NCBI GenBank assembly: GCA_964605145.1 | Contig: CAZSBG010000015.1 | Location: 373-64,372, forward strand | From: an uncultured Cytophagia bacterium | Lineage (GTDB): Bacteria; Zhuqueibacterota; Zhuqueibacteria; Thermofontimicrobiales; Thermofontimicrobiaceae | Direction of reading: 5' to 3' | Length of the DNA: 64,000 nt | Shown here: positions 33,714-53,002 of the stretch, in pieces | Numbering within the stretch: the first letter of the stretch is position 1 | Layout: every line of letters begins with the position of its first letter | Translations under genes and position numbers: made by a program | The notes under the pieces: model-generated | Told to the model about the DNA's origin: nothing | Databases searched by the model: none | Seen by the model: the letters and a program-made list of their open reading frames with translations, nothing else

Positions 33714-36560
33714 ATGAAAAAATATTTTTTCTTCGTATGGACACTTGTTTTTATTTTTCAATTGCATGCCCAGGAATTTGTCAATATTACGTTTCGCCAT
33801 TATTCTTCCAATCCCGGGGTTACCAGTGCGTTCGTGCCGGGCTCATTCAATAATTGGGGAAATAATAGCAATGGCAACATTTCTCCCACCGATCCTTCGC
33901 TGATGACTTTCGTCGATTCTTTGGGATGCTGGATTAAGGATTACCGCTTTCAGGTCGGTTCAACCCACTATTATAAATTCAATGAAAATGGCACGTCTGA
34001 TGGATGGCTGCCGGACCCGTTGAATCCATTGAGGGAAACCGGCGGGTACAACAATTCGATTTTGCAGGTCAATGAACTGATGACATTCGAAACGCTACCC
34101 CAAAACGGCGCGGTTATTTCGGAACAAGAGCCGGAGCTCGTCCTCGGCGTGTTCACGACTGAAAACGATTCCCTGCTTTTAAGCCAGTCCACAATTACGC
34201 TCAATGAAACTATTGCATCCACGTTTGAGAACTGGTTCGTCACGGACCTTTCCCTTCTCAAATATTCGCTGCCGGAATTGAGCAACGGCAACCACAAAAT
34301 TGTACTGAACATCACCACAAAAAACGGAAAAACATTATCCGACTCCGTAAGTTTCACCTACCAGGGCGCATCGCCGGAGATTCGCCCTCTGCCGTCCGGG
34401 GTTGTGGATGGAATTAATTACATCGATCAATCCACGGTTACGCTGGTGTTGCACGCGCCATACACAAAGGATTTTGTGTACGTCATTGGCGATTTCAACG
34501 ACTGGAACGTAGATCAAAATTATTTCATGTATAAAACGCCGGACTTACAGCGATACTGGCTGACCATTGAAGAACTCAATCCGAACCAGGAATATGCATA
34601 CCAGTATTTTGTCGATGGTGAAATTAAAATTGCTGATCCATATACAGAAAAAATTCTCGATCCGTGGCATGATCAATACATCACCGATGCGACCTACCCG
34701 GACCTAAAATCTTATCCCACGGGAAACACGACTGAAATCGTTTCTGTTTTTCAAATAGACGACGATGAGTACGAATGGCAATCCACGGATTACAGTCGGC
34801 CGGAAAAGAAAAATTTGGTCATTTACGAATTATTGATCCGCGATTTTGTAGCTGAGCACGATTACAAAACGCTCATCGATTCTCTCGGTTATTTCGAACG
34901 CCTCGGCATTAACGCCATCGAAGTGATGCCGGTTTCGGAATTCGAAGGCAATGAAAGCTGGGGTTACAATCCGTCGTTTTATTTCGCGCCGGACAAATAT
35001 TACGGACCGAAAAATGAACTGAAGCGATTCATCGATGAATGCCATAAGCGCGGTATCGCGGTTATTCTGGATATCGTGCTCAATCACTCGTTTGGGCAAT
35101 CACCGCTGGTTCGGCTTTTCAGCGAAGGCCTGTATGGCCCGCCTTCAGCAGACAACATCTGGTACAACAACGACTACGATCCAAATTATGCCGGCTATCA
35201 GGCGCGGCACCCCTACAATGTTGGTTATGATTTTAATCATGAAAGTTATTCGACGAAACAATTCATCGATCGTGTGAACGCATTCTGGATCGAGGAATAT
35301 CGAGCCGACGGATTTCGGTTCGACCTGACAAAAGGTATGACGCAACGAGTGAGCTATACCAGCAATGGCAATTATAATGAATCCCTTGCCAGCTCGTACG
35401 ATGCGTCGCGAATCGCCATTTTGAAACGAATGGCAGATCAAATCTGGGCTGTCGATTCCACCGCCTACGTCATTCTGGAACATTTCTGTGACACCACCGA
35501 AGAAAAGGAGCTTTCCGATTACGGGATGATGCTGTGGGGAAATTCAAATTATAATTATACGGAAGCAACCATGGGCTACCATGATTCCAATAAATCCGAT
35601 TTTTCGTGGGGCTATTACAAAACTCGCGGCTGGGCCAATCCCCATTTGGTAACCTACATGGAAAGCCACGATGAAGAGCGGCTGATGTACAAAAATCTGG
35701 AATACGGAAATAGCTCCGGCAGCTATTCAATTAAAGAATTGGGAACCGCGTTGAACCGAATTAAGTTAGCTGCCGCGTTTTTCTTCACTTTGCCCGGGCC
35801 GAAAATGATCTGGCAATTTGGTGAATTGGGATATGATTATTCGATAAATTACGATGGCCGTCTTGGGAACAAACCCATTCGGTGGGATTATTATCAGAAT
35901 CAAGATCGACGCAATTTGTATGAAACGTATTCAGAGTTAATTAAGCTTCGAAAAGAAAACGCGGCGTTCACCAGCCCAAATTCCCAGGTGGCCCTTGCAG
36001 TCGGCGGTTCGAACAAACGGATTAATATCTCCCACGAAACAATGAATGTAACAATCGTCGGTAATTTCGGTGTGACAACTGCGAGCATCAACCCGGCGTT
36101 CCAGCACACAGGTGTTTGGTACGATTATTTTTACGGCGACAGCCTGACAGTGACAGACATCGGCCAACTCATTTCATTGAACGCCGGCCAATTTCATATT
36201 TATACGGACAAGAAACTCGTTTCGCCCGGCTCGGGTATCATTGACAAAGTAGAAAAATTCGAGACAGAAGCGCCGGTGAGTTTTCAGCTTTATCAGAATT
36301 ATCCCAACCCGTTCAACTCGACGACGACAATCCGGTATACCTTGAACGATCTGCAACCGACGTTTACGAAAGTGCAGATTTTCAACATCCGCGGACAACA
36401 CATCAAAACGCTGGTCGCAAAGAAGCAGGCCGTCGGATTCTATCAGGTTGAATGGGATGGCACCGACGAAAACCAGGCGCCTGTCAGCAGTGGCGTGTAT
36501 TTGTACTCCATTAAATCAGGAGCTGAGTCAATCTTGAAAAAGCTGGTTCTGGTGAAGTAG
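33714..36560 (+). CDS. Secreted GH13 alpha-amylase-family glycosidase with T9SS/FlgD-like CTD
   Basis: WGYNP, DIVLNH, DGFRFD, ILEH and ESHDEE; C-terminal QNYPNPFN...WDG...SGVY. Confidence 0.9.
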   Translation: MKKYFFFVWTLVFIFQLHAQEFVNITFRHYSSNPGVTSAFVPGSFNNWGNNSNGNISPTDPSLMTFVDSLGCWIKDYRFQVGSTHYYKFNENGTSDGWLPDPLNPLRETGGYNNSILQVNELMTFETLPQNGAVISEQEPELVLGVFTTENDSLLLSQSTITLNETIASTFENWFVTDLSLLKYSLPELSNGNHKIVLNITTKNGKTLSDSVSFTYQGASPEIRPLPSGVVDGINYIDQSTVTLVLHAPYTKDFVYVIGDFNDWNVDQNYFMYKTPDLQRYWLTIEELNPNQEYAYQYFVDGEIKIADPYTEKILDPWHDQYITDATYPDLKSYPTGNTTEIVSVFQIDDDEYEWQSTDYSRPEKKNLVIYELLIRDFVAEHDYKTLIDSLGYFERLGINAIEVMPVSEFEGNESWGYNPSFYFAPDKYYGPKNELKRFIDECHKRGIAVILDIVLNHSFGQSPLVRLFSEGLYGPPSADNIWYNNDYDPNYAGYQARHPYNVGYDFNHESYSTKQFIDRVNAFWIEEYRADGFRFDLTKGMTQRVSYTSNGNYNESLASSYDASRIAILKRMADQIWAVDSTAYVILEHFCDTTEEKELSDYGMMLWGNSNYNYTEATMGYHDSNKSDFSWGYYKTRGWANPHLVTYMESHDEERLMYKNLEYGNSSGSYSIKELGTALNRIKLAAAFFFTLPGPKMIWQFGELGYDYSINYDGRLGNKPIRWDYYQNQDRRNLYETYSELIKLRKENAAFTSPNSQVALAVGGSNKRINISHETMNVTIVGNFGVTTASINPAFQHTGVWYDYFYGDSLTVTDIGQLISLNAGQFHIYTDKKLVSPGSGIIDKVEKFETEAPVSFQLYQNYPNPFNSTTTIRYTLNDLQPTFTKVQIFNIRGQHIKTLVAKKQAVGFYQVEWDGTDENQAPVSSGVYLYSIKSGAESILKKLVLVK

Positions 36561-41292: not shown

Positions 41293-41329
41293 AAGCGCTC
41301 CCAGCAATTATCTGAGAGCGCTTTTTTTT
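41293..41329 (+). terminator. Rho-independent terminator
   Basis: AAGCGCTCCCAG...CTGAGAGCGCTT followed by a T-tract after the M14 stop. Confidence 0.75.
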
Positions 41330-41684: not shown

Positions 41685-41701
41685 TTGGTATTGTTATTGC
41701 C
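41685..41701 (+). promoter_or_regulatory. Candidate sigma-54 (-24/-12) promoter
   Basis: TTGGTATTGTTATTGC (GG-N10-GC), about 70 bp upstream of the operon start, after a long AT-rich intergenic region. Confidence 0.45.
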
Positions 41702-41772
41702 TGATTAACGAATGAAACATTTGATGAATTCAATTATCATAAATTCGCTAACAGACTTTTCAAAAACAAGAG

Positions 41773-43473
41773 ATGATTATGTTGATCAGGGAATCCAAAA
41801 AACGAATACTCATTTTAATCATTGCAGCGCTTTTAATATTACAAGCTCTTATGTCTGAAAATTGTGTGGCACAAACGTATGACATCAATAATGCCGCAGA
41901 AAAATCTCATCCCTGGATTTCCGATATCAATCCGGCCATGGTATCTTTTCAATACGGCCAGGTCTCCCTTGGTTTCAGGTCGTTCCATCTTGGTTTTTTA
42001 CAGGACAAAGCGCTTGGTCTTAATGAGAGTCATATCAGTGCCAGTTTTCCATTTCATTTACCATTGGAAATTGGTATTGGGTGCGACCTACGGTATTTCT
42101 CTGCCGGAATTTATTCAGAATTGCAGAGCTCGCTGTTATTCAGCCGAAAAATTGTATCTCAGTTTGGAATTGGACTCAAAGTGGGGCTGATACGATTTGG
42201 TTTTTCCAGGGATAATTTTTCGACTATTCATGAAAACGACCCATTACTCTCGGGAAACCTCGGTGTAAATGGTTTAAATATCGGAGCAGGAGCCTATTGG
42301 AATCCCGGCAACTGGTCTGTGGGAGTTGCATTGAATCATTTAAATCAACCCAATATGGGATACCAGACATCTGCGCATTTGCTACGGGATATTTCAGCCG
42401 CAGTGGGCTACCGTTTTGGTTACATCACCCCCACAGTGCTCATTCAAAACGATGGTTTAAATGTTCGATACGGGCTGGCTATTTCTGCAAAACGGGAACG
42501 ATGGGGGACCATCAGGTTTTCATACGAAAATACCATGCCTTTCAAAATGGAAATACAGTTCAGTCTTTCCCAGAATAACAAGCTGCAATATGGACTTGAT
42601 GTTCCACGACAGCACATGAGTTCAGTATCCATGGGATCTCATGAAGCGATTTACACACATATTTTCGATCGGGGACCTGACATTGGGCAGCCAGAAATAC
42701 TTTTATCCACAAATGAAATACAAATTTTTGAAGAGAACATTGTAAGAAGCATGCCTTCCGATATGTACCCATCGGAACTCGAACGCCTGACAGAGTTAGC
42801 GCCGGATTATCTGAAAACCGCGGGGAGTTTCAGAAACCTGCTTATTATTCCAACAGGAAACTTAAGCCAGTATGAGTCAGAAAAAATTCGGCAGGAGCGC
42901 TACCTCAGATTGGGACAAGAAATTCAAAAGAAACTATCGCAGCATCCCGGGCTGCAGCTCATTCTGCAAACCGAAGAAACATCACTAAAAGATGCACGCG
43001 CATTCAAACACTTTTTGCAAAAACATCGGATTGCGGTTTCTGATGATATCGGGATCGCTGCACTGACTTCCACCGGAGAATTGAACCTGTCCGGTTTCTA
43101 CCCGGGAAAGGAAAATGAAACCCGACAGAAACCGAAATGTTCGCAGGATCATCTTTCCATCACAATGATGGTCCCGGGTAAAATTCGCCATGTTAAAGAG
43201 TGGACATTGGACATCAAAAATAGCAGGGACAAAGTGATCCGTTCATTTCAGGGCAGAGACAAACTCCTGGAAAACATTGTGTGGGACTGGAAAAATAACT
43301 GGGGAGAGCTGGTGCCGGCAGGAAAATACTTTTGCCATTTATCCCTCAAAACCATGAGCGATCAGGTGAAAACCTCTTCATCCAAAGAAATATCGGTCAC
43401 AAAAATAAATCGCAAAATCGTCTTGCAGTTCAAAAGACAAAGAAATTTACAGGTAAATAAATTAGTACCCTGA
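41773..43473 (+). CDS. PorP/SprF-like T9SS outer-membrane beta-barrel fused to C-terminal domains ending in a FlgD-like Ig domain
   Basis: Signal peptide; INPA, alternating beta-strands, ENDPLL, GVALNHLNQP and GSHE (PorP/SprF hallmarks); then WDWKNNWGELVPAGKY. Confidence 0.72.
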   Translation: MIMLIRESKKRILILIIAALLILQALMSENCVAQTYDINNAAEKSHPWISDINPAMVSFQYGQVSLGFRSFHLGFLQDKALGLNESHISASFPFHLPLEIGIGCDLRYFSAGIYSELQSSLLFSRKIVSQFGIGLKVGLIRFGFSRDNFSTIHENDPLLSGNLGVNGLNIGAGAYWNPGNWSVGVALNHLNQPNMGYQTSAHLLRDISAAVGYRFGYITPTVLIQNDGLNVRYGLAISAKRERWGTIRFSYENTMPFKMEIQFSLSQNNKLQYGLDVPRQHMSSVSMGSHEAIYTHIFDRGPDIGQPEILLSTNEIQIFEENIVRSMPSDMYPSELERLTELAPDYLKTAGSFRNLLIIPTGNLSQYESEKIRQERYLRLGQEIQKKLSQHPGLQLILQTEETSLKDARAFKHFLQKHRIAVSDDIGIAALTSTGELNLSGFYPGKENETRQKPKCSQDHLSITMMVPGKIRHVKEWTLDIKNSRDKVIRSFQGRDKLLENIVWDWKNNWGELVPAGKYFCHLSLKTMSDQVKTSSSKEISVTKINRKIVLQFKRQRNLQVNKLVP

Positions 43474-43538
43474 CAATTTTGGAATTCGCCAAACATTTTT
43501 AATAAATACTTCAAATCGAAAAAAACAGGAGTTGAAAA

Positions 43539-44471
43539 GTGAAAAAATCAGCACATTGCAAAATCAGAAAATCATTTGTAAACCTGAGCCAGTTGATTCT
43601 GATATTGGGCATTGTATTTTTTCTATTCAATGCAACACCCATTCAAGCCAAAGGGAGAAAAGCGCCAAAGGGACAAATTGAAGCTCAAAAATCACAAGCT
43701 GGAGAAAATAAAAGTGAATCAGAGAAAGCGGGCAAACTTACCGTTTGGAAAATTATTGAAATGACGGACTGGTTATTTTGGCCATTTGTTTTAATCATCA
43801 CGACAGGCATCATGCTAATTACCTACCGGGGGCTCTATGAATACAGGGAAAAGTCCCGTTCACAATCGCTAATGCAGGGAAAAATACGACTGAACGACTT
43901 AAAACAACTGATCCGCATGAATCGTGGACCAAATCCCACGCGTGCCTGGCGGCTTTTTCATCAAATGTTGGTGACATTCGATAAAACGCGCAAAGCTGAA
44001 CCGATCGGGGATGATGTCAACCAATTCCTGAATACAGAACGCGATTCATTCGAATCCTTCAACAGGATAACGAGCTTTCTTTCGGATACGGCCGGCGCAT
44101 TGGGATTGCTGGGGACGGTGTGGGGTATTTTTCAAACGTTCCACGCTGGCAAACTGGACGGCCCCACCATTCTTCAGGGAATGAGTATTTCACTCGTCAC
44201 CACCCTGGTAGGACTCATAATCAGTGTGGCCCTGAACATGGGTTCAACCTATATTTTTACAATGTTCAATGGCCAGTTGAATGTTTTGTCCAATCGTGCG
44301 GAAGCGGTGCGTCAGATTTTGTTAGCCCATGAAACAAAAGGCACAAAGCCACAGCCGGCGCCTGTTGAAGAAAGTGATTATGACATCCAAACCGTGGAGA
44401 TGAATTATCAGCCGCGACCGAAAGCGCGCGCCAAGCGAAACCTGGATGTGGCATATCAATCGAATTATTAA
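43539..44471 (+). CDS. MotA/TolQ/ExbB proton channel protein
   Basis: AGALGLLGTVWGIFQTF...GMSISLVTTLVGLIISV TM motifs. Confidence 0.9.
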   Translation: MKKSAHCKIRKSFVNLSQLILILGIVFFLFNATPIQAKGRKAPKGQIEAQKSQAGENKSESEKAGKLTVWKIIEMTDWLFWPFVLIITTGIMLITYRGLYEYREKSRSQSLMQGKIRLNDLKQLIRMNRGPNPTRAWRLFHQMLVTFDKTRKAEPIGDDVNQFLNTERDSFESFNRITSFLSDTAGALGLLGTVWGIFQTFHAGKLDGPTILQGMSISLVTTLVGLIISVALNMGSTYIFTMFNGQLNVLSNRAEAVRQILLAHETKGTKPQPAPVEESDYDIQTVEMNYQPRPKARAKRNLDVAYQSNY

Positions 44472-44520
44472 TTTTCTACTTTTCACAAAGTGACTTTTTT
44501 TGAAGACAGGTGAAGTTACC

Positions 44521-45891
44521 ATGAAACCAACAAATTCCAGAATATTGACTAACCGAACGGTTGTATCCCTCGCTGTTTTGACAATGCTACTCTTTCCAGC
44601 AGTCTTTGCCGGTCCTCATCATTTTCCCGATGCAATTGGGGCAGGCATCGATGGAACCGCATTTCACAAGACCAGTCTGGATAGCCTGACTTTGGTTTAC
44701 AATAATGTGACAGCGGGCGAATTCCCCAAAATCGTATCTCTTGTTACGGTAACCAATGACGCCGGCTTCGTGATTGGCGAGTTGGATGAGGACAATTTTG
44801 AAGTAAGAGAGGATGACATTCGGGAATTACCCATCCTGGTGGAAGAACTCACCGGCCACGAAATTGGATTTAGCGTGATTCTGGCTTTGGATAGAAGCGG
44901 AAGCATGCGGGGCCAACCCATCGATGATTCAAAAGTGGCTGCAAGTGCGTTTGTCAACCTGATGCAGGGCGAAGACCAATCGGCTATTGTTAGTTTTTCG
45001 CATCAGCCGCAGACGGATTCTCCCTTCACCAATATTAAGGACTCTCTGAATGCGGCCATTAACAGAATGGAAGCCATGGGAGGCACCGCAATTTATGATG
45101 CACTGGTTCATTCTGTGTATTTGTTTACCAGTGACCTGAAAAACCGGGCCATCATATTAATGACCGACGGTGCGGATAAGGACAGCCAATACAGTTACAA
45201 TGAAGCGCTGACTGCCATAATCTCCCATGAAATTCGCGTGTTTACAATCGGCCTGGGACTGAATCCAAACAGTCCTGAAGAGAACACGCTGAAGGATCTG
45301 GCCAAACAAACCGGAGGATTGTATTATTACAGCCCCACATCCAGCGATTTGGAAGAAATCTATCGGGCGATTTCCAAACTATTACATCATCGTTACCGCG
45401 TGACATACACTACACATAATCCGGCAAAAGATGGAAGCCGGCGTTACGTTCAGATCGATGTGAATGTAAACGGCAACAACAGCGCCGATACCTCCAGTTA
45501 TGTGGCGCCGTATGAGGAAATTCCGATTGATCCGCCAGTGGATCCGCCAATTGATCCGCCGGTCGATCCGCCAACTCCACCGGACCCTCCGGTGGAACCG
45601 GAAGAACCGCCGGATGAACCTGAAATTGAAGTCACTCCCAATCCATTCACACCAAATGACGATGGCATCAATGATTGGGTTGAATTCAAAAAAGGCGATA
45701 ACACGCCTTCTGATTGGGTGATTTCAATTATGAACCGATCAGGCCTCGAAATTAAAACCTTAAGCAATGGAGAAAAATATTGGAATGGCCGGGATGAAGC
45801 TGGAAATTTGATGCTACCTGGATGTTATCTGTATCTGATTACTGATAGTAACCAGGTCATTCATCGCGGGCTTTTAAACTTGATTCGATAA
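44521..45891 (+). CDS. Secreted VWA-domain protein with Pro-rich linker and gliding-motility-associated (type B-like) CTD
   Basis: MIDAS motif DRSGS/T/TDG; (DPPx)n linker; PNPFTPNDDGINDW...MNRSG...WNG...GCYLY...GLLNLIR. Confidence 0.85.
   Translation: MKPTNSRILTNRTVVSLAVLTMLLFPAVFAGPHHFPDAIGAGIDGTAFHKTSLDSLTLVYNNVTAGEFPKIVSLVTVTNDAGFVIGELDEDNFEVREDDIRELPILVEELTGHEIGFSVILALDRSGSMRGQPIDDSKVAASAFVNLMQGEDQSAIVSFSHQPQTDSPFTNIKDSLNAAINRMEAMGGTAIYDALVHSVYLFTSDLKNRAIILMTDGADKDSQYSYNEALTAIISHEIRVFTIGLGLNPNSPEENTLKDLAKQTGGLYYYSPTSSDLEEIYRAISKLLHHRYRVTYTTHNPAKDGSRRYVQIDVNVNGNNSADTSSYVAPYEEIPIDPPVDPPIDPPVDPPTPPDPPVEPEEPPDEPEIEVTPNPFTPNDDGINDWVEFKKGDNTPSDWVISIMNRSGLEIKTLSNGEKYWNGRDEAGNLMLPGCYLYLITDSNQVIHRGLLNLIR
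45529..45573 (+). repeat. 12-bp tandem repeat (GATCCGCCRnnn) encoding a DPPx linker
   Basis: gatccgccagtg gatccgccaatt gatccgccggtc gatccgcca. Confidence 0.8.
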
Positions 45892-45948
45892 TACCACCAA
45901 AAGTAAATACTAACTAATCGCATGTTTAACAAATTAAGGAGATGGACC

Positions 45949-47928
45949 ATGAGACAGACAAAAAAGCTACAATCCGCAAAATTTATGAAAAAAGTTGCCA
46001 TCGGAATAATTGGACTTTTTATGATGGCGACTGTCAGTGAATCTTTGGTTTTCGCTGATGGAAATGAACAACTGGGTATTGACTTACCGGTATATACCGG
46101 AAAATATGATGTTGGTGTGACAAGTCTGGGTTCTTTAGGCTTGCGTGGAGAAGCCACAGCTTTGATGAAAATTCCGGAAGACGCAGAAATCGTTGCAGGC
46201 TATGTATATTTCAGCGCGTATTCTGATGTAACGCCGGCGCAGCTTGGCGATATTATTGTCACGCTGAGCAATGATGAAGGCAGCACAGTGACGAAAAATG
46301 CATCGCTCATTGGCTATTCAACTGAAGGTGCAATGCAAAGCTTCACCTATCGCGCCGATGCGACCGAAGTATTGGTATTGGGTGAACATCGCTACCACGT
46401 TGATGATGTGCAGCTTCCGGTACGGCCCACCAGTGGCGGTATTTATGGCGGCGGTCTCGTTGCAATTTACAGTCTGGACAATCTTCCGGAATCGAATATC
46501 TGGATTGCAGATGGTTTGGATTATTTCAATGCGGCCAGCGAATTACCATTAACCAAAACCGTTTCTTTCCCGATTGAAGGAAATCGCTTTGAACGCTGGG
46601 GTTCCGTCAAAATTTTCGCTGGTGTCGACGATCGCAACAGCGCATCGGGTGTCTGGTACAAAATGGGTTTCGGCAGCTCACCTTCCGGCGATATCGCTGA
46701 TACGGATGGCGCAGTCGATTATAACAATTCATCGAATGCCGATCCAAATATCGATACCAACCCGCTTTCGGATGGCATTGGAATCAGACGTCATTTTTCA
46801 ATGGTTGAATTCATTGTCCCGGTTCGATCGGAAGAAGACTGGGCATCATTTCAATTGGAATCACAGACCGACAATCCACAATTGCCGGCGTTAAGCGGCG
46901 TGTGGAATATGGTTGCTTTCAAACTTCCTCTTGAAGAAACCGGATGCGGCAGCATTGGCGACAGGGTTTTCTATGATAAAAATTCCGATGGCGTTCGCGG
47001 ACCTTTTGAAATGGGGCTTCCCGCAGTTAATGTGATGCTATACCAGGACAATGGCGACAATCTGTACCAACCTGAAAGCGATACGTTTGTGGATAGCGTG
47101 CGCACTAATCGTCTCGGATTTTACCTGTTTCAAAATCTCGATGCCGGCACTTATTTCGTTGACATCGATCATCCGTATATGAATGAGAGCAATGTTGCGC
47201 TGACAACAAATAACGATCCGACCGATCCCATCGTTTTGGAAGAATGCGAGGCCAATCTAAATGTTGATTTCGGGTTCATCCTGACCGATCGCGAACCTGT
47301 TGTTTCCGTTGAAATTGATTCATTCAAATACATCTTCAAATTCGGTGATATCATGCTGAATTGGGCTGCTCAATCCGAAACCGAAAATCTCGGGTATGAA
47401 ATTTCCCGAAGCGATTCGGAAAATGGAGAGTACCAGATCATCAATACAGAGGTCATTCCCTCTTCAAATAGCGCGGGTGAGACACATCATTACACGTATG
47501 TTGATTCCGACGTGGAAGAAGGTCAAACCTATTATTACAAAATCTCTGATGTCGACGTTACAGGAACAACCACGGATATCATTGGACCGTTCCCTGCAAC
47601 GGCGCAGAGCACTTCGGTTTTCAATTTTTCCGATGATGGTCAATTGCCTGAAAACCATCAATTAGGCTCAGCCTATCCCAATCCGTTCAATGGCAGAACC
47701 AATATCAAATTCTATATGAATAAGACCGGTATGGTGAAAGTTGAATTATACAATCTGCTGGGCCAAAAAGTCCGCAGCCTGGTTTCTGAAATCAGAATTG
47801 CCGGATTCCATTCAGTTTCATGGGATGGCAAAAACGATTTTGGCAAAGACCTGGTAAGCGGAGTGTATCTCTATCGCATGACAACTGATAATTTCAAAGC
47901 AACTAAACGCATTTTGTACCTGAAGTAA
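45949..47928 (+). CDS. Secreted protein with SdrD-B-like domain and type A/FlgD-like CTD
   Basis: RBS AAGGAG; signal peptide; GSIGDRVFYDKNSDG, SETENLGY and AYPNPFN...WDGKND...SGVYLY. Confidence 0.8.
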   Translation: MRQTKKLQSAKFMKKVAIGIIGLFMMATVSESLVFADGNEQLGIDLPVYTGKYDVGVTSLGSLGLRGEATALMKIPEDAEIVAGYVYFSAYSDVTPAQLGDIIVTLSNDEGSTVTKNASLIGYSTEGAMQSFTYRADATEVLVLGEHRYHVDDVQLPVRPTSGGIYGGGLVAIYSLDNLPESNIWIADGLDYFNAASELPLTKTVSFPIEGNRFERWGSVKIFAGVDDRNSASGVWYKMGFGSSPSGDIADTDGAVDYNNSSNADPNIDTNPLSDGIGIRRHFSMVEFIVPVRSEEDWASFQLESQTDNPQLPALSGVWNMVAFKLPLEETGCGSIGDRVFYDKNSDGVRGPFEMGLPAVNVMLYQDNGDNLYQPESDTFVDSVRTNRLGFYLFQNLDAGTYFVDIDHPYMNESNVALTTNNDPTDPIVLEECEANLNVDFGFILTDREPVVSVEIDSFKYIFKFGDIMLNWAAQSETENLGYEISRSDSENGEYQIINTEVIPSSNSAGETHHYTYVDSDVEEGQTYYYKISDVDVTGTTTDIIGPFPATAQSTSVFNFSDDGQLPENHQLGSAYPNPFNGRTNIKFYMNKTGMVKVELYNLLGQKVRSLVSEIRIAGFHSVSWDGKNDFGKDLVSGVYLYRMTTDNFKATKRILYLK

Positions 47929-47940
47929 ATTCGTTCGATT

Positions 47941-47975
47941 CACCCTCCCGATGGCCTTTTGCTTTCGGGAGGGTG
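47941..47975 (+). terminator. Strong intra-operon hairpin (terminator or RNA stabiliser)
   Basis: Perfect 11-bp stem CACCCTCCCGA...TCGGGAGGGTG with only a short T-run. Confidence 0.6.
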
Positions 47976-48015
47976 TTTCAATCGCACTCATTTTTATCAT
48001 CACAGGTAAAAGGCC

Positions 48016-48420
48016 ATGGGAAAAAGCAATTTAATGATTCGGATGATTGATATTGTATTTATACTTCTTTTTGGATTCATTGCTGTTTCGCAAATCGATA
48101 CCACCGCAGCCATCGATCCGCCAAAAAGCAGCGAAGCCATGGAAGGCGCGCCGGCCGACGCCAAAACAATTATTATTGGCGTGAAAAAGGATGGCACCTT
48201 TCCGGTCGATGGCGGAAAACACGTCTTAAAAAATACCTATCAATTGCGTCGTTTTTTACTGGAGAAAGCCAGCCAGGCAGATAAAAAGGGGAATCAATTG
48301 GGCGTTCGGATTCGGGCGGATTGGGATTCCCGCGTTGAACATGGTCTGGCTGTCGCCCGAATATGCAGGGAATTAGGACTTTCAAAAGGGCTGGATGTCA
48401 TTAAATTTGTGTCAGAGTAA
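48016..48420 (+). CDS. ExbD/TolR-family protein
   Basis: TM segment MIDIVFILLFGF with the conserved Asp; VRIRAD. Confidence 0.88.
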   Translation: MGKSNLMIRMIDIVFILLFGFIAVSQIDTTAAIDPPKSSEAMEGAPADAKTIIIGVKKDGTFPVDGGKHVLKNTYQLRRFLLEKASQADKKGNQLGVRIRADWDSRVEHGLAVARICRELGLSKGLDVIKFVSE

Positions 48421-48429
48421 GGGGCTATC

Positions 48430-48828
48430 ATGAATATGAACACTCGCCTGATGATCAGGCTCATCGATGTCGCGCTGATTATACTTCTGGGATTCATCGC
48501 CATCAGTCGGCTCAAAACAGAATTTGTGGATCTTTCCTCGTCGACTTCAGAGGTGAGAATGTCTCAAAATTTTCATGAGGCAACTCTCACCGTTTATCGT
48601 AATTCTTTCAAACTAAACGATCGCGGAAATTCGTGGACAGGGCGATCCATTCAGGATTTGGAACACGTTCTTATCAACAAGAACAATTTATACGCTCGTC
48701 AGAAAACGAAACTTGTTGTAACCATAGAGCCTCACAAATCGTGCATTATGCAAAAATTAGTCGATGTTTTTGATGTCTGTCATCGGAATAAAATTGAGAA
48801 GAGTTTGAGCTATGAAAGCTATAACTGA
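48430..48828 (+). CDS. Second ExbD/TolR-family protein
   Basis: TM segment LIDVALIILLGF with the conserved Asp; MQKLVDVFDVC. Confidence 0.82.
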   Translation: MNMNTRLMIRLIDVALIILLGFIAISRLKTEFVDLSSSTSEVRMSQNFHEATLTVYRNSFKLNDRGNSWTGRSIQDLEHVLINKNNLYARQKTKLVVTIEPHKSCIMQKLVDVFDVCHRNKIEKSLSYESYN

Positions 48829-49897
48829 TTATATAAGTAAACAAAACAACCTTCATTTGCTATCAGCATGGATCACCTTAGGCATCATGCTGATATTGTT
48901 CATCCTTGCACAGATATTTTCATTCACAAGTCTTGCAGATAAATCAAAATTGAAAAACACCAAAATGGAAGTCCGGGAACTTATTAAGCTGTCTTTTACG
49001 CCGCAAAAACTGAAAAAGCAATCCCGAACCCAAGGATTTGAAATCAAGAAGGCCTCCTACACAAAAACGCAGGGGAATAACAAGAAACACAGCGCCAGAA
49101 AATCTCAAAACAAGATGAACATTTCCTCGCTTGTTCAGGGTTTTGATTCCAAAAAACTGATTTCCAAAGAAACCAGAGCTGCACGGCGAGGCGTGGCCAG
49201 TAAATCGATCAATCACTCTGCCGGCGTTTCGACCGATGTTTCCAGGCAGAGCCGGAATCTGGAGGATTTCGATATTTTGGGGCAACTGTCCAATCACCGA
49301 ACAGCGATGGCTTCCTCCAAACGGGCTGCAAGGGGAGGCAATGGCGGACCTAAAATTTCCCTGGGAGGTAGCAGTTCCGTTGGAACAGGCACAGGATCCG
49401 GCACTGATGGAGTCGCTTTAAGCGGACGCGGCACCAGTCGAGCCACGAGAGGCAGCAGCTCCGGTGTTGGCGGTGCGAGCATTTCTCTGCCTTCCGGTTC
49501 AGGCGGCGGCAATGCGTCTCTGGACCTGCATGCGCTGATCAAATGGATGAAAGCGCATCCGGGAGCCATTCCAAAATTAGTCGCCTATGAAATGGGTCAA
49601 CAGGGCGGCGATTTATCTTCAAGCATCCCATTCATGTTGAATGGCCGAAATTTTCGATTCTTCCTTTCCTGCAATGAAACTGAATTGCTGTTAAGAATTT
49701 GTCTCGTAGAGGGCAACAATTTTACCCTGTTGAAAGATAATGGAATTCGCGAAGAGAGTAATTTTTTAACCATTGGAGATGTGGTTCGGGAAAACAGCAA
49801 AATTACATCTCTTATCAGTTCCCGCAGAGCGCCGGGAGATAAGGCTGCTGCGTTTTACCAGATATTCTGGGCCTGGTGGAAAACTCAGGAAAAATGA
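48812..49897 (+). CDS. Single-TM protein with Lys-rich and Gly/Ser-rich linker and unknown C-terminal domain (TonB/TolA-like architecture)
   Basis: N-terminal TM, long low-complexity linker and globular C-terminus, directly after two exbD genes. Confidence 0.6.
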   Translation: MKAITDYISKQNNLHLLSAWITLGIMLILFILAQIFSFTSLADKSKLKNTKMEVRELIKLSFTPQKLKKQSRTQGFEIKKASYTKTQGNNKKHSARKSQNKMNISSLVQGFDSKKLISKETRAARRGVASKSINHSAGVSTDVSRQSRNLEDFDILGQLSNHRTAMASSKRAARGGNGGPKISLGGSSSVGTGTGSGTDGVALSGRGTSRATRGSSSGVGGASISLPSGSGGGNASLDLHALIKWMKAHPGAIPKLVAYEMGQQGGDLSSSIPFMLNGRNFRFFLSCNETELLLRICLVEGNNFTLLKDNGIREESNFLTIGDVVRENSKITSLISSRRAPGDKAAAFYQIFWAWWKTQEK

Positions 49898-49982
49898 TCT
49901 TCCAAAAAACGTGTAACATAATTTAAGATCCATCTATTGAACGAATACTTTACAGGTACAAACGTGGAGGTGAATACTTGAA

Positions 49983-51455
49983 ATGGAACGAAAGATGAAA
50001 TTAATAATCCGGTTATTGGCGAGCGCCTGGCTCATCAGTGTACTCGGGTGCGCCTCATCCGGTGGCAAATACGTAAAGAAATTGAACGTCCCACCCGGTC
50101 TCGATAGCACCACGGTAGTTCGATCTTTGGAGATTGCCAACAACAGTTTTGTCTCTACGAAAAAGGAAAAAAAGGCTGAGATTCTCTCCAAAAAAGGGAA
50201 GAAAGATTTAGACCAGGTCGATGAATTTTGGGCCTACCTTGAACAGGACATGAAAAAACAGGCCAAACTCAGTTCATCTGATAAAAGACAATTTGACCGT
50301 AAAATGAACCTGGGTTCCCAGAACCTCGCGAAATGGAAAAAATTAACCAACAATGGCACCAATGAATCTCGCGCAAAAGAAGCCATGAAGTATTGTCAAC
50401 AGGCCAAACAGCATTTGGAGACGGCTGTAAAACTCAATCCCTTTGATAAAAACGCCAGGGTATTACTGGCCGTAACCTATTACAATTTGCAACACATGTT
50501 TGGTCTTGAAAAAAATTATGAAAAATCAATTGAAATACTTGAGAGACTTACACGAATAGAAAAAGGCGAGCATGAATTGTTCCGACTACTGGCTGAAAAC
50601 TATCTAGCCGTAAAAAATTATGAGCAAGCTATGCTGAACTTCCAGCAAGCGCAAAAAATCATGCTGAAAATAAGCTTTGAAGCGCCGCCGGATACTTCCA
50701 TGCTTTTCTATTATATGTATGCCCAGGGCGATGCCTATGCCCGCATGCACGATGAAGTTCGCGCTCTGAAGGCATTCCAGGTTGCAGAAACATTTGCCAG
50801 ATCACCACAGGAAAAAGCAGATCTGGATAATTATATAAAATGGATTCAATGGGATAACGGAAATATCCGTGCCTCAGAATTATATGACAAAATCCTTGCC
50901 CTGGAATTTGAAAAAAAATTTGACCCCATGGCGCAAGCGTGTGAAAAATTAATCCCCATGCTGAAAACGAAAAAAGCGAAGATGAGCGTCTACCATAAAC
51001 TTGCTGTGGTAGAATTTGAAATATTAGGAAGGAAGGCTCAGGCGGTCGAGCGAATGCGGATGGTGTACGAAACACTGGAATACGAAAATTTCGGAATGAC
51101 ACCAAAAGAAATTCAGCCATTTTACGACAGTTATGGCGCCATGCTTTATCGACTTGGCGTTGAAACCAGGGATAAACAGGAGAAAAGACTGGCGTTGGCA
51201 TATTTCAACAAGGCCGCTTCATTTAAATGGGAGCAGGTGGCAAAAGCTCATATTGAATTGGTAACGCTGTTATGGAATGATCCGGAACAGGCAATTTTTC
51301 ACGGAAAAAAGGCATTGGCAAATACCAATGGCCTGACTAACGAAGAATCGGACGAACTACTGTCGCTGATGGTGCGGGCGCACAAGAGCGCAGGGCTTTA
51401 TGATGAAGCCAGGGAATATTTCACCAAATGGAAACAATCCAGGAGCAAGTTATGA
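49983..51455 (+). CDS. TPR-repeat lipoprotein
   Basis: Lipobox VLG-C; helical TPR-like repeats (AVKLNPFD, LAENYLAVKNYEQA, AQGDAYARM). Confidence 0.8.
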   Translation: MERKMKLIIRLLASAWLISVLGCASSGGKYVKKLNVPPGLDSTTVVRSLEIANNSFVSTKKEKKAEILSKKGKKDLDQVDEFWAYLEQDMKKQAKLSSSDKRQFDRKMNLGSQNLAKWKKLTNNGTNESRAKEAMKYCQQAKQHLETAVKLNPFDKNARVLLAVTYYNLQHMFGLEKNYEKSIEILERLTRIEKGEHELFRLLAENYLAVKNYEQAMLNFQQAQKIMLKISFEAPPDTSMLFYYMYAQGDAYARMHDEVRALKAFQVAETFARSPQEKADLDNYIKWIQWDNGNIRASELYDKILALEFEKKFDPMAQACEKLIPMLKTKKAKMSVYHKLAVVEFEILGRKAQAVERMRMVYETLEYENFGMTPKEIQPFYDSYGAMLYRLGVETRDKQEKRLALAYFNKAASFKWEQVAKAHIELVTLLWNDPEQAIFHGKKALANTNGLTNEESDELLSLMVRAHKSAGLYDEAREYFTKWKQSRSKL

Positions 51456-52102
51456 GAAGGAAAAAATTGCGTATAGCAAAGGTCATTTTTATAATATCTT
51501 TTATTCTAACATGGTTGATAAATTCGAACGTATTTAGTCAATCCAATAGCATACACCTCGATCAGGAAATCGTTCAGACCACGACGGTCACCAATAAAAA
51601 ATTGATCAATTTTTTCACTGAAGATTTTATGATCCCGGAAGAAAAAATCGAAAAAATGGTTATTTACGATTTATCCGGGGATGGTTTTGGGGAACGGGAT
51701 ATCGCCAGAACCTATCCCGGCGGGAAGTTCTATCTTCTCACCCCAAGCAGCAAGGCTCAGAAGATAATGAACTTGTGGAGCTTTGGGGGCAATATTAAAT
51801 TTACTGCAAACTCCAATGATTCTCCGGAACGATTCGAGCATGCACCGGATTCTGTTCGCGCCATGGGAGCTATTTTTGCTTCTGTACTTCGGGGATTGAG
51901 AAGAAATTATAAAGGCATTCCGATCAAGCTTCATCTGGAACAAACGAATGATGTCACTTCGGTTGAAATGTGGGGCTATAAAAAAGGTTTGATGGATTAC
52001 AATCCGTTACCAGTGAATAAAGTCCCGGAAGAAGTGCCGGTCTTGAAGTTAATATATTTGGAAAAAACAGTTGTGGACAGTGTGTTTGTTAACGCGAATT
52101 AA
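51452..52102 (+). CDS. Exported hypothetical protein
   Basis: ATGA overlap with the TPR gene, AGGAG RBS and a signal peptide-like N-terminus. Confidence 0.65.
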   Translation: MRRKKLRIAKVIFIISFILTWLINSNVFSQSNSIHLDQEIVQTTTVTNKKLINFFTEDFMIPEEKIEKMVIYDLSGDGFGERDIARTYPGGKFYLLTPSSKAQKIMNLWSFGGNIKFTANSNDSPERFEHAPDSVRAMGAIFASVLRGLRRNYKGIPIKLHLEQTNDVTSVEMWGYKKGLMDYNPLPVNKVPEEVPVLKLIYLEKTVVDSVFVNAN

Positions 52103-52147: not shown

Positions 52148-53002
52148 TCAGGAATCCCCTCTTTTGAGGGGATTCCATTTTATTCCGAGAACGTTTCTTG
52201 CGTAAAGCACGCTTTCCCGAACAATGTTATCCTCCTTTTGCAATGCCGACCTTTTATCAGGCTCTGCCTCTACCGGCAGTTCCAGAATAATTTTTTCGAG
52301 CTCCGCCTTTTCTGTCAAAATAGCCAGCGCGCGAAACAAATCGATATTTCCCTGTCCCAATGCAACGCCGGTGACTTTGAATCCGTAATTTTGCAGTTGA
52401 ATGGAATAATCCTTGAAATGGGTTGTAAAGGCAAACGGCGCCATTTTTTCAGCTGCGACGAGAGGATCTTCAAGCGTCATCATTGCATTGCCCAAATCGA
52501 GGCAAATACCAATATTCGGGCTATTCACAGATTCAACAATTCGAATTAACTCTTCTGTTGAAACATCGCCATGATTTTCGATGGCTACTTTTATGCCGGC
52601 ATTTTCCACTTCCGATTTAATCTCCTGCAAATATTTGATCGCCTTTTGAACCTCGGCTTCCACATCAGTTTTTTTATTGAACCGGTCAAAGCCAATAAAA
52701 GTACGGAGTATTTGACTTTCAAGGGCTGAGCAAATTTCCATCTCGTTTTTCAAATATTCTGTTTCAACACCCATGGCGCCGTATTCCAGAAAAATATTCT
52801 TTTCTTTCACAGAAGCGACAATTTCCTCCAAATACTGTCTGTCACGACTCTCCAAATGCTGGGGATCAATTTGAAATCCATCCAGGCCAAGTTCTTCGAC
52901 GCGTTCGATAAAATCGAACAGGGTCATTTTTTGCTTCGGCGCAAAATCCGGATGTGCGCCAAAAGCAAGGTGATAACTATAACTGTCTAAACCTAATTTC
53001 AT
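52148..53002 (-). CDS. Sugar phosphate isomerase/epimerase (xylose isomerase-like TIM barrel)
   Basis: AIENHGD, CLDLGN, THFKD, LGQGNID and LE metal ligands. Confidence 0.85.
   Translation of the reverse strand: MKLGLDSYSYHLAFGAHPDFAPKQKMTLFDFIERVEELGLDGFQIDPQHLESRDRQYLEEIVASVKEKNIFLEYGAMGVETEYLKNEMEICSALESQILRTFIGFDRFNKKTDVEAEVQKAIKYLQEIKSEVENAGIKVAIENHGDVSTEELIRIVESVNSPNIGICLDLGNAMMTLEDPLVAAEKMAPFAFTTHFKDYSIQLQNYGFKVTGVALGQGNIDLFRALAILTEKAELEKIILELPVEAEPDKRSALQKEDNIVRESVLYARNVLGIKWNPLKRGDS

Follow-up and report, generated by a model that had tools for sequence, protein, structure and literature searches.

Proton-driven 5:2 motors power flagella, Ton-dependent uptake, the Tol-Pal system, gliding in Myxococcus, Zorya defence and, in the form of the GldLM motor, type IX secretion (the T9SS). 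The Agl-Glt gliding machine of Myxococcus combines one TolQ-like with two TolR-like subunits, TonB-like and tetratricopeptide repeat (TPR) proteins, outer-membrane barrels and a VWA surface protein, and in Porphyromonas gingivalis the porKLMN genes are presumably encoded after porP. PorP-like proteins anchor T9SS cargo that carries a type-B C-terminal domain (CTD), with SprB and SprF lacking a PorE partner; porP-like genes adjoin porE-like genes, and SprB of Flavobacterium is a mobile type-B adhesin held by the PorP-like barrel SprF (PMC9143113). The nearest description in print that we found is that of transmembrane (TM)-anchored vWA 'force transducers' encoded beside TPR-tolQ-tolR-tolR genes (PMC12204202). 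Here, we analysed a nine-gene operon at positions 41773-52102 (+) of a 64,000-nucleotide window (the whole stretch of DNA under study, from contig CAZSBG010000015.1 of an uncultured member of KSB1, 'Ca. Zhuqueibacterota'), in which a PorP/SprF-family barrel and T9SS cargo are encoded together with an ExbB-ExbD-ExbD stator. This locus probably encodes a dedicated proton-driven, envelope-spanning machine serving PorP-anchored T9SS type-B cargo, with a coupling of motor to cargo that we infer.

The nine open reading frames are co-directional on the + strand, separated by 9-87 nt or overlapping (g6 and g7 by 17 nt, g8 and g9 by 28 nt). They encode, in order, a PorP/SprF-family outer-membrane barrel with a C-terminal extension (g1, 41773..43473), a divergent ExbB/TolQ-type stator subunit (g2, 43539..44471), an exported VWA protein with a metal-ion-dependent adhesion site (MIDAS) and a type-B T9SS CTD as cargo (g3, 44500..45891), an exported DUF3344/SdrD_B protein with a type-A T9SS CTD (g4, 45922..47928), two ExbD paralogues with their TM Asp at residues 12 and 13 (g5, 48016..48420; g6, 48430..48828), a TM-linker-globule protein that is our candidate force transducer (g7, 48812..49897), a TPR lipoprotein (g8, 49983..51455) and an exported protein of a small family without annotation (g9, 51428..52102). 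The original prediction, which had recognized these nine co-directional genes and their domains, agrees with our profile scans, the MIDAS, both TM Asp residues and the lipobox being present; it had placed the operon at 41685-52102, of which the end holds, and the start moves to the first gene at 41773. Its statement that the operon carries neither a TonB-dependent receptor nor Pal/TolB is borne out as well, since Pfam and NCBIfam scans found no TonB-dependent receptor, TolB, Pal or OmpA-type domain among the nine operon proteins, ordinary Ton sets and receptors being encoded elsewhere in the genome.

Compared with the Ton system, the operon likewise encodes together an ExbB-family stator, an ExbD with a TM Asp and a TM-linker-globule third protein, but g7 has neither TonB_C nor the conserved His, ExbD comes as two paralogues, and no linked TonB-dependent receptor is present, the proteins encoded alongside being a PorP barrel, a TPR lipoprotein, g9 and T9SS cargo. 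With PorK/L/M/N (GldK/L/M/N), it shares, beside a PorP-family gene, a stator, a part that spans the periplasm, a lipoprotein of the outer membrane and a protein of the periplasm, as well as the functional tie to CTD cargo; in contrast, neither GldL nor GldM nor GldN showed any detectable sequence relation to it, the stator is of the ExbB/ExbD type, and the lipoprotein is a TPR protein instead of having the formylglycine-generating enzyme (FGE)-sulfatase fold. The likeness to Agl-Glt is one of part list (a TolQ-like and two TolR-like subunits, TonB-like protein, TPR protein and barrel, with a VWA surface protein in the window), and differs in that the module cargo goes by T9SS and that VWA is not conserved in the module family. 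The barrel of the module is extended by 270 aa and comes with motor genes of its own, whereas motion in Flavobacterium comes from GldLM; the pairing of an adhesin-like type-B CTD protein with a PorP-like barrel encoded beside it is the same as for SprB-SprF (PMC9143113). The vWA force-transducer clusters of PMC12204202 (section 8) resemble the operon by a TolQ-like gene, an unlike TolR-like pair, a TPR gene and a protein of TonB topology without TonB_C; however, the C-domain there is a vWA, whereas g7 has another domain and the VWA of the window is a secreted T9SS cargo, and neither PorP nor CTD cargo is described in that section.

Conservation of the module

We compared the operon with 167 KSB1 species genomes (G000-G166, the window genome's own contigs being G000), of which g7 matches 64 and the g9 profile 62, in the same families; these counts, like the other 167-genome counts given here, take in the unpublished G158 and G162, without which g7 and g9 match 62/165 and 60/165, respectively. 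PorP, ExbB, type-B cargo, two ExbD, g7, TPR protein and g9 are all found in 17 of the 20 KSB1 loci, 15 of them in the order of the window, with the cargo between exbB and exbD, and two with the cargo upstream of porP. The three remaining loci are one cut by a contig start (L053), one with a split PorP and no detectable ExbD1 (L044), and the variant L052, which is considered below with g7. A pattern scan with the g7 alignment, over one genome per species, gave 79 loci, the record titles of which include Calditrichia/Caldithrix, Rhodothermales, Balneolales, Cyclonatronaceae, Gemmatimonadota and JdFR-76. Twenty-four of these 79 loci, from outside KSB1 and two of them from cultured isolates (L277 and L293, Rhodohalobacter / Balneolaceae), were annotated with profiles of the KSB1 genes: the order cargo-PorP-ExbB-ExbD-ExbD-g7-TPR-g9 is found in 16, and six are cut by contig ends. 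PorP is thus encoded beside a type-B CTD gene in the window, in 17/20 KSB1 loci and in 16/24 loci of other phyla, and the genes of g7, g8 and g9 accompany those of the stator in every case, the genes of a long-extension PorP and a type-B CTD adhesin-like protein in nearly every case. As the same gene set recurs across many genomes, the layout of the operon is more than chance. Overall, these data indicate that the gene set is a real, conserved, multi-phylum module.

The window genome has a second module, on contig C14, with the cargo upstream of porP; its g9 is at the end of contig C136, and its TPR gene, which was not found, presumably falls in an assembly gap. A profile census of this genome gave two strong matches to PorP, two to the type-B CTD and no more, and all four belong to the two modules. 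Conversely, ten of 15 good module-less KSB1 genomes have no PorP_SprF match, and in the other five most matches sit in frames that measure 337-357 aa and hence lack the extension. The occurrence of the module thus follows that of PorP and type-B cargo rather than that of T9SS as a whole.

The cargo itself varies. In the window, g3 matches VWA (72.8 bits), with the MIDAS motif DRSGS at residue 131, CHU_C (43.6 bits versus 27) and the TIGR04131 type-B CTD (37.9 bits versus a cut-off of 35), and g4 matches DUF3344, SdrD_B and the TIGR04183 type-A CTD (45.1 bits versus 23). Orthologues of g4 are present in four of the 20 KSB1 loci (L036, L037, L038 and L051), the nearest relatives only. In the widespread form of the module, the cargo is encoded upstream of porP and is a protein of ~1000 aa with Big_5, FG-GAP, Ig, CARDB and CHU_C domains. 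The VWA cargo is thus not core to the module. The gene order of the window, in which cargo genes separate exbB from exbD, represents a derived arrangement within KSB1.

Anchor, stator and candidate transducer

The family assignment of g1 was made by profile and by structure prediction. The PorP_SprF family (PF11751) matches residues 53-293 with 59.5 bits for a cut-off of 22.3; the score against TIGR03519 (70.1 bits) is under the cut-off of 90.55, and g1 is therefore a divergent PorP/SprF member. In the model (mean predicted local distance difference test, pLDDT, of 83), a barrel at residues ~62-327 is followed by an alpha/beta domain (~356-431) and an FlgD-Ig-like sandwich (~447-552), and W477, W504 and Y519 of this extension are invariant among 31 sequences. 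In Foldseek searches, the barrel aligned with FadL and with the T9SS translocon component PorV (8gl6_F, E 1.1e-7, template-modelling score TMt 0.53, root-mean-square deviation 4.3; 6h3i_F, TMt 0.56). Both g1 and g9 have a signal peptide with a Gln after the probable cleavage site. Profile and model together confirm the predicted identity of g1 as an outer-membrane beta-barrel of the PorP/SprF family, and its role, by analogy with that family, would be to hold cargo on the cell surface. The FadL/PorV-like barrel also brings up another function, namely an energised import in which the motor opens the barrel via g7, as in TonB-dependent uptake, while the surface protein captures the substrate. 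The resemblance to FadL-type transporters, and a logic shared with Ton-dependent receptors that have surface-exposed binding proteins, speak for it, but neither a plug domain nor a Ton box was recognized, and the cargo domains are adhesin-like (VWA, FG-GAP, Ig). The known role of the PorP_SprF family, to which the barrel belongs, is moreover the anchoring of type-B cargo (PMC9143113), and we regard import as highly improbable.

For the stator, MotA_ExbB (PF01618) matches g2 with 48.8 bits (cut-off 22.9), and ExbD (PF02472) matches g5 and g6 with 48.9 and 31.0 bits, respectively (cut-off 25.4). The Thr of GTVWG and the Thr of TM3 are invariant in 42/42 module ExbBs, and the TM Asp (D12 in g5, D13 in g6) in 43/43 family members for each paralogue; judged from these alignments, ExbB and both ExbD subunits keep the residues that proton flow requires. 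Nine MotA_ExbB matches are present in the window genome: the two in PorP clusters score lowest, g2 being the weakest of all, and the seven others are ordinary paralogues elsewhere. In a quick ExbB tree, a branch of length 6.08 (Shimodaira-Hasegawa-like approximate likelihood ratio test support of 100) splits six of these seven canonical paralogues from the 42 module ExbBs, the seventh (branch length 10) being placed inside the module clade, a placement that is untrustworthy; the ExbBs of the window's type form a nested clade of 17. The genome also has nine TonB_C and 38 Plug matches, all outside the operon, the nearest Plug being ~38 kb off within the window. These observations bear on the plainest reading of the locus, ordinary Ton/Tol genes that merely lie beside T9SS genes. 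The order ExbB-ExbD-ExbD-transducer-TPR is common for Ton genes of Bacteroidota; however, the synteny with porP and type-B cargo is kept across phyla, the module ExbB forms a separate clade, TonB_C is missing and canonical sets lie elsewhere in the genome. Because of these canonical Ton genes and of the separate ExbB clade, the module is not a housekeeping Ton set, and this reading is close to refuted.

Module ExbBs outside the window's type are long (409-694 aa) and carry Big_1 Ig-like domains after TM3 with no further TM helix (type-II loci, among them L065:2064-3668(-) and L277:7103-8674(+)). If ExbB has its usual topology here, the Ig-like domains would lie in the cytoplasm. A defence system was considered for the operon and dropped, as PADLOC gave g2 weak generic ZorA/MotA matches alone (20.2 bits).

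The candidate force transducer, g7, carries its only TM helix (S18/T22) at the N-terminus, shows a conserved RELxxL motif and ends in a ~125-aa C-domain behind some 175 aa of disordered linker rich in Gly, Ser and Lys. Its model gives a helix at residues 14-58, pLDDT below 50 at 59-103 and 125-234, and ~90 at 235-361, where the C-domain has the topology alpha-alpha, six strands, alpha. No Pfam or NCBIfam family matches g7, VWA included, and the hhalign probability between its C-domain and the genome's own TonB_C domains is 0.1%. In fold searches, the model has no clear relative among solved structures (best VIA Z 6.1, for FcpB and TipC2; best Foldseek E 0.13), with no TonB chain listed, and a search of PDB sequences with the g7 profile hit nothing but single-chain antibodies, at their Gly/Ser linkers, which is an artefact of low complexity. 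Its relatives are labelled 'hypothetical protein', apart from one 'DUF3482 domain protein', and have no Pfam domain. Within the family, position 18 of the TM helix is Ser in 17/25 sequences, the x3 position is Thr in 19/25, Ser in 4/25 and His in 0/25, and a Glu ~20 residues past the helix is kept in 21/25. By these sequence comparisons, g7 is not a TonB_C protein, and its model, in which a long linker separates the TM helix from the globular C-domain, has a TonB/TolA-like topology.

A natural variant in one KSB1 genus supports a transducer role for g7, as far as sequence can indicate it. In L052 (G154:C20:13700-27800) and L035 (G156:C401), a canonical ExbB, scoring 121 bits in L052, takes the place of the module stator genes directly before the g7 homologue, and there is no ExbD at the locus. 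This homologue retains the g7 C-domain, and its TM helix has the x3-His found in two TonB_C proteins of the window genome. A complex prediction of the g7 C-domain with the PorP extension, g8 and g9 gave a score of 0.00 for a mark of 0.32, and speaks neither way.

Downstream, g8 matches TPR families and has the lipobox VLGC, the Cys23 of which is invariant in 25/25 sequences. The most conserved gene of the module is g9, with 72-78% identity among close relatives; no Pfam or NCBIfam family, no PDB sequence in a profile search and no usable ESM Atlas match were found for it. The g9 family is small, with 145 representative clusters at E <= 0.001 among 1.84 billion, and its profile matches 9/401 sampled Bacteroidota genomes. 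With stator, TM-linker-globule protein and TPR lipoprotein in this order, the operon recalls tolQRA ... cpoB, and might act as a Tol-Pal-like tether, in which a TolQ-TolR-TolA-like set and a CpoB-like TPR lipoprotein fasten the PorP-cargo complex or stabilise the outer membrane without movement or export. By the argument of PMC12204202, CpoB is a lipoprotein of the outer membrane in bacteria other than Proteobacteria, and PorE unites CpoB, TolB and Pal in one fusion; PMC9143113 reports porP-like genes beside porE-like ones. This tether is nevertheless very unlikely: the operon has no TolB, Pal or OmpA-type domain, no TolA or TonB C-domain is found in g7 by sequence, and so strict an association with a single cargo gene points to a role specific to the cargo.

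Two side observations concern these families. Three tandem TPR paralogues of g8 (246-275 bits to the g8 profile) lie at G000:C104:9549-13990 (-), among lipoprotein-like genes and with no module near. In Gemmatimonadota-titled loci (L288:5067-7244, L295:11708-14107 and L301:5674-7827), a further ~500 aa bearing EF-hand-like motifs are fused to the C-terminus of g9.

The operon is set apart from its surroundings. A terminator-like hairpin at 41294..41329 (+), with a 7-bp stem and a T8 run, read directly from the sequence, ends the upstream carboxypeptidase genes and is followed by an AT-rich gap of ~440 nt before g1; it is not reported by the consensus terminator scan because its 13-nt loop exceeds the length allowed. 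A second one, with 11 pairs of which seven are G-C, lies at 52151..52176 (+) between the operon and the convergent genes. The genes on either side have no relation to the operon: their products are two carboxypeptidases of the M14 family, an amylase with a CTD, a TIM-barrel enzyme and a dehydrogenase. The amylase-family protein (33714-36560, +, 948 aa) has a type-A T9SS CTD and represents an ordinary type-A cargo in the same genome.

T9SS energisation in KSB1

The window genome (6.29 Mb, 215 contigs, 94.8% complete) encodes SprA (726.7 bits) and PorV (261 bits). SprA matches 167/167 KSB1 genomes, 163 over cut-off, whereas GldL and GldM are over cut-off in 0/167, with one weak match each, the same profiles finding them in 5/5 control Bacteroidota. 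No GldL/GldM match was found in the window genome by profiles, nor any match to GldL, GldM or GldN by phmmer with the divergent proteins of L323 (G355:C1:3889000-3902500) and L324 (G443:C2:358000-371500), two gldK-L-M-N-like operons from the class of G539. The presence of sprA/porV without detected gldL/gldM, which the original prediction had singled out, is thus observed, with models that are insensitive; its premise that T9SS runs on PorL/PorM does not fit KSB1. The gldKLMN proteins of L323 and L324 score below 32 bits, with GldL and GldM under the Pfam and TIGR cut-offs, so the standard profiles under-call T9SS motors outside the class Bacteroidia, and since the GldL/GldM models are insensitive to divergent forms, the absence from KSB1 is not proven. 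The T9SS of KSB1 might be energised in some other way or have a motor too divergent for current profiles.

Could the module be that motor? As a substitute T9SS motor, ExbB-ExbD-ExbD-g7-g8-g9 would be an analogue of PorK/L/M/N that serves type-B or all cargo via SprA without GldL/GldM. In its favour come the failure of GldL/GldM in KSB1 beside the controls and the near-universal SprA, and the phmmer searches of the window genome. A profile of the divergent GldL proteins (A5) gave no credible GldL in the 13 module-bearing genomes outside KSB1, all 13 of which have SprA, and in a sample of 401 Bacteroidota genomes none of the nine module-bearing ones is among the 105 with a TIGR03513 match. The parts, a lipoprotein, a stator, a periplasm-spanning protein and a periplasmic protein behind porP, also parallel the porP-porKLMN arrangement of P. 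gingivalis. Against it, 105/167 KSB1 genomes have SprA but no module; with the module in only 62/167, it cannot be the general T9SS motor. Profile A5 moreover matches only 6/141 genomes in the class of G539, so that most of them have neither GldL nor the module, and the true operons L323/L324, at less than 32 bits, illustrate how insensitive the GldL/GldM models are. We consider a substitute motor unlikely.

Another candidate, an ExbB-ExbD-TonB set near sprA as the T9SS motor of KSB1, was dropped, as this adjacency occurs in 1/13 KSB1 genomes, of the same genus. The locus concerned (L066, G000:C35:20000-39900) has sprA, an M28 peptidase gene and exbB-exbD-tonB, the M28 neighbour being present in 9/13 KSB1 genomes and the Ton genes in 1/13. 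The GldK-like FGE-sulfatase genes of the window genome have no gldLMN-like neighbours. One of them, in L064 (G000:C92:4000-22000), encodes a 442-aa protein; its gene is flanked on one side by that of a CsgG/TPR protein and on the other by that of an Ig-repeat protein of 2809 aa, which carries a type-A CTD.

Proposed mode of action and its meaning

In the mechanism that we favour, a dedicated machine for PorP-anchored cargo, an ExbB5-ExbD1-ExbD2 complex would convert proton flow to force. The TM helix of g7 would dock on this stator and its long linker would span the periplasm, like those of TonB and TolA, and its C-domain would engage an assembly at the outer membrane in which the PorP extension is joined by the TPR lipoprotein, g8, and by g9. 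Cargo would be exported via SprA/PorV and then held by PorP, and the force would act on the PorP-cargo complex. The likeliest outcome is that an adhesin would be moved or re-oriented on the surface, or that the last export step and the hand-over to PorP would be driven.

Three checks of this proposal had been set beforehand, on the family and fold of the protein at 41773, on synteny in other genomes and on the C-domain of the protein at 48812, and all three were run: the first protein matches PF11751 with 59.5 bits and is modelled as a barrel that Foldseek aligns to FadL/PorV, the gene set is conserved in 17/20 KSB1 loci and in 16/24 loci beyond the phylum, and the C-domain has no family match, an hhalign probability of 0.1% to TonB_C and no TonB chain in fold searches. 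None of them refuted the reading. A dedicated ExbBD motor with a non-canonical TonB-like protein and a PorP barrel, as originally predicted, is supported; the VWA protein as a core part is abandoned, and the physical coupling is one that we infer.

Several points weigh against a dedicated machine. The module is missing from 105/167 KSB1 genomes and is therefore accessory, and L287, outside KSB1, has one ExbD instead of two. Some Gemmatimonadota-titled loci have the motor-g7-g8-g9 part without adjoining porP or cargo, and one of them, L295, has neither gene although its sequence reaches 7 kb upstream. A neighbouring PorP may therefore be dispensable for the motor part. The taxa of the loci outside KSB1 and Bacteroidota are taken from record titles, and some KSB1 metagenome-assembled genomes are visibly mislabelled. 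TonB_C, the conserved His of the helix and a Pro-rich linker, the hallmarks of TonB, are all lacking in g7. Finally, since the cargo differs between loci, no single output can be read from it.

A further-reaching reading concerns the lineages of the Fibrobacteres-Chlorobi-Bacteroidetes (FCB) group that have SprA/PorV and no detectable GldL/GldM. There, ExbB-ExbD1-ExbD2-g7-TPR-g9 might be an independently evolved counterpart of PorKLMN, powering the export and/or the surface movement, in a gliding-like motion, of PorP-held type-B adhesins; we put this forward tentatively, as rather unlikely. Our searches of the literature turned up no account of an ExbBD set linked to PorP; gene lists that bear on it could stand in supplementary tables, those of PMC12204202 and PMC11683472. 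In the main text of the KSB1 paper (PMC11683472), 'secretion', 'motility', 'gliding', 'TonB' and 'ExbB' do not occur, and PMC9143113 does not contain the terms ExbB, ExbD, TonB or MotA.

As two cultured isolates (L277 and L293) carry the module, the question is open to genetics, and three unannotated families, those of g7, g9 and the PorP extension, gain a testable context. To the known 5:2 motors, the module would add a coupling in which a Ton/Tol-type stator is wired to a T9SS outer-membrane anchor via a transducer that has an unrecognised C-domain. If the counterpart reading were true, it would be a second kind of T9SS-coupled motor, with a Ton/Tol-type stator and a new force transducer.

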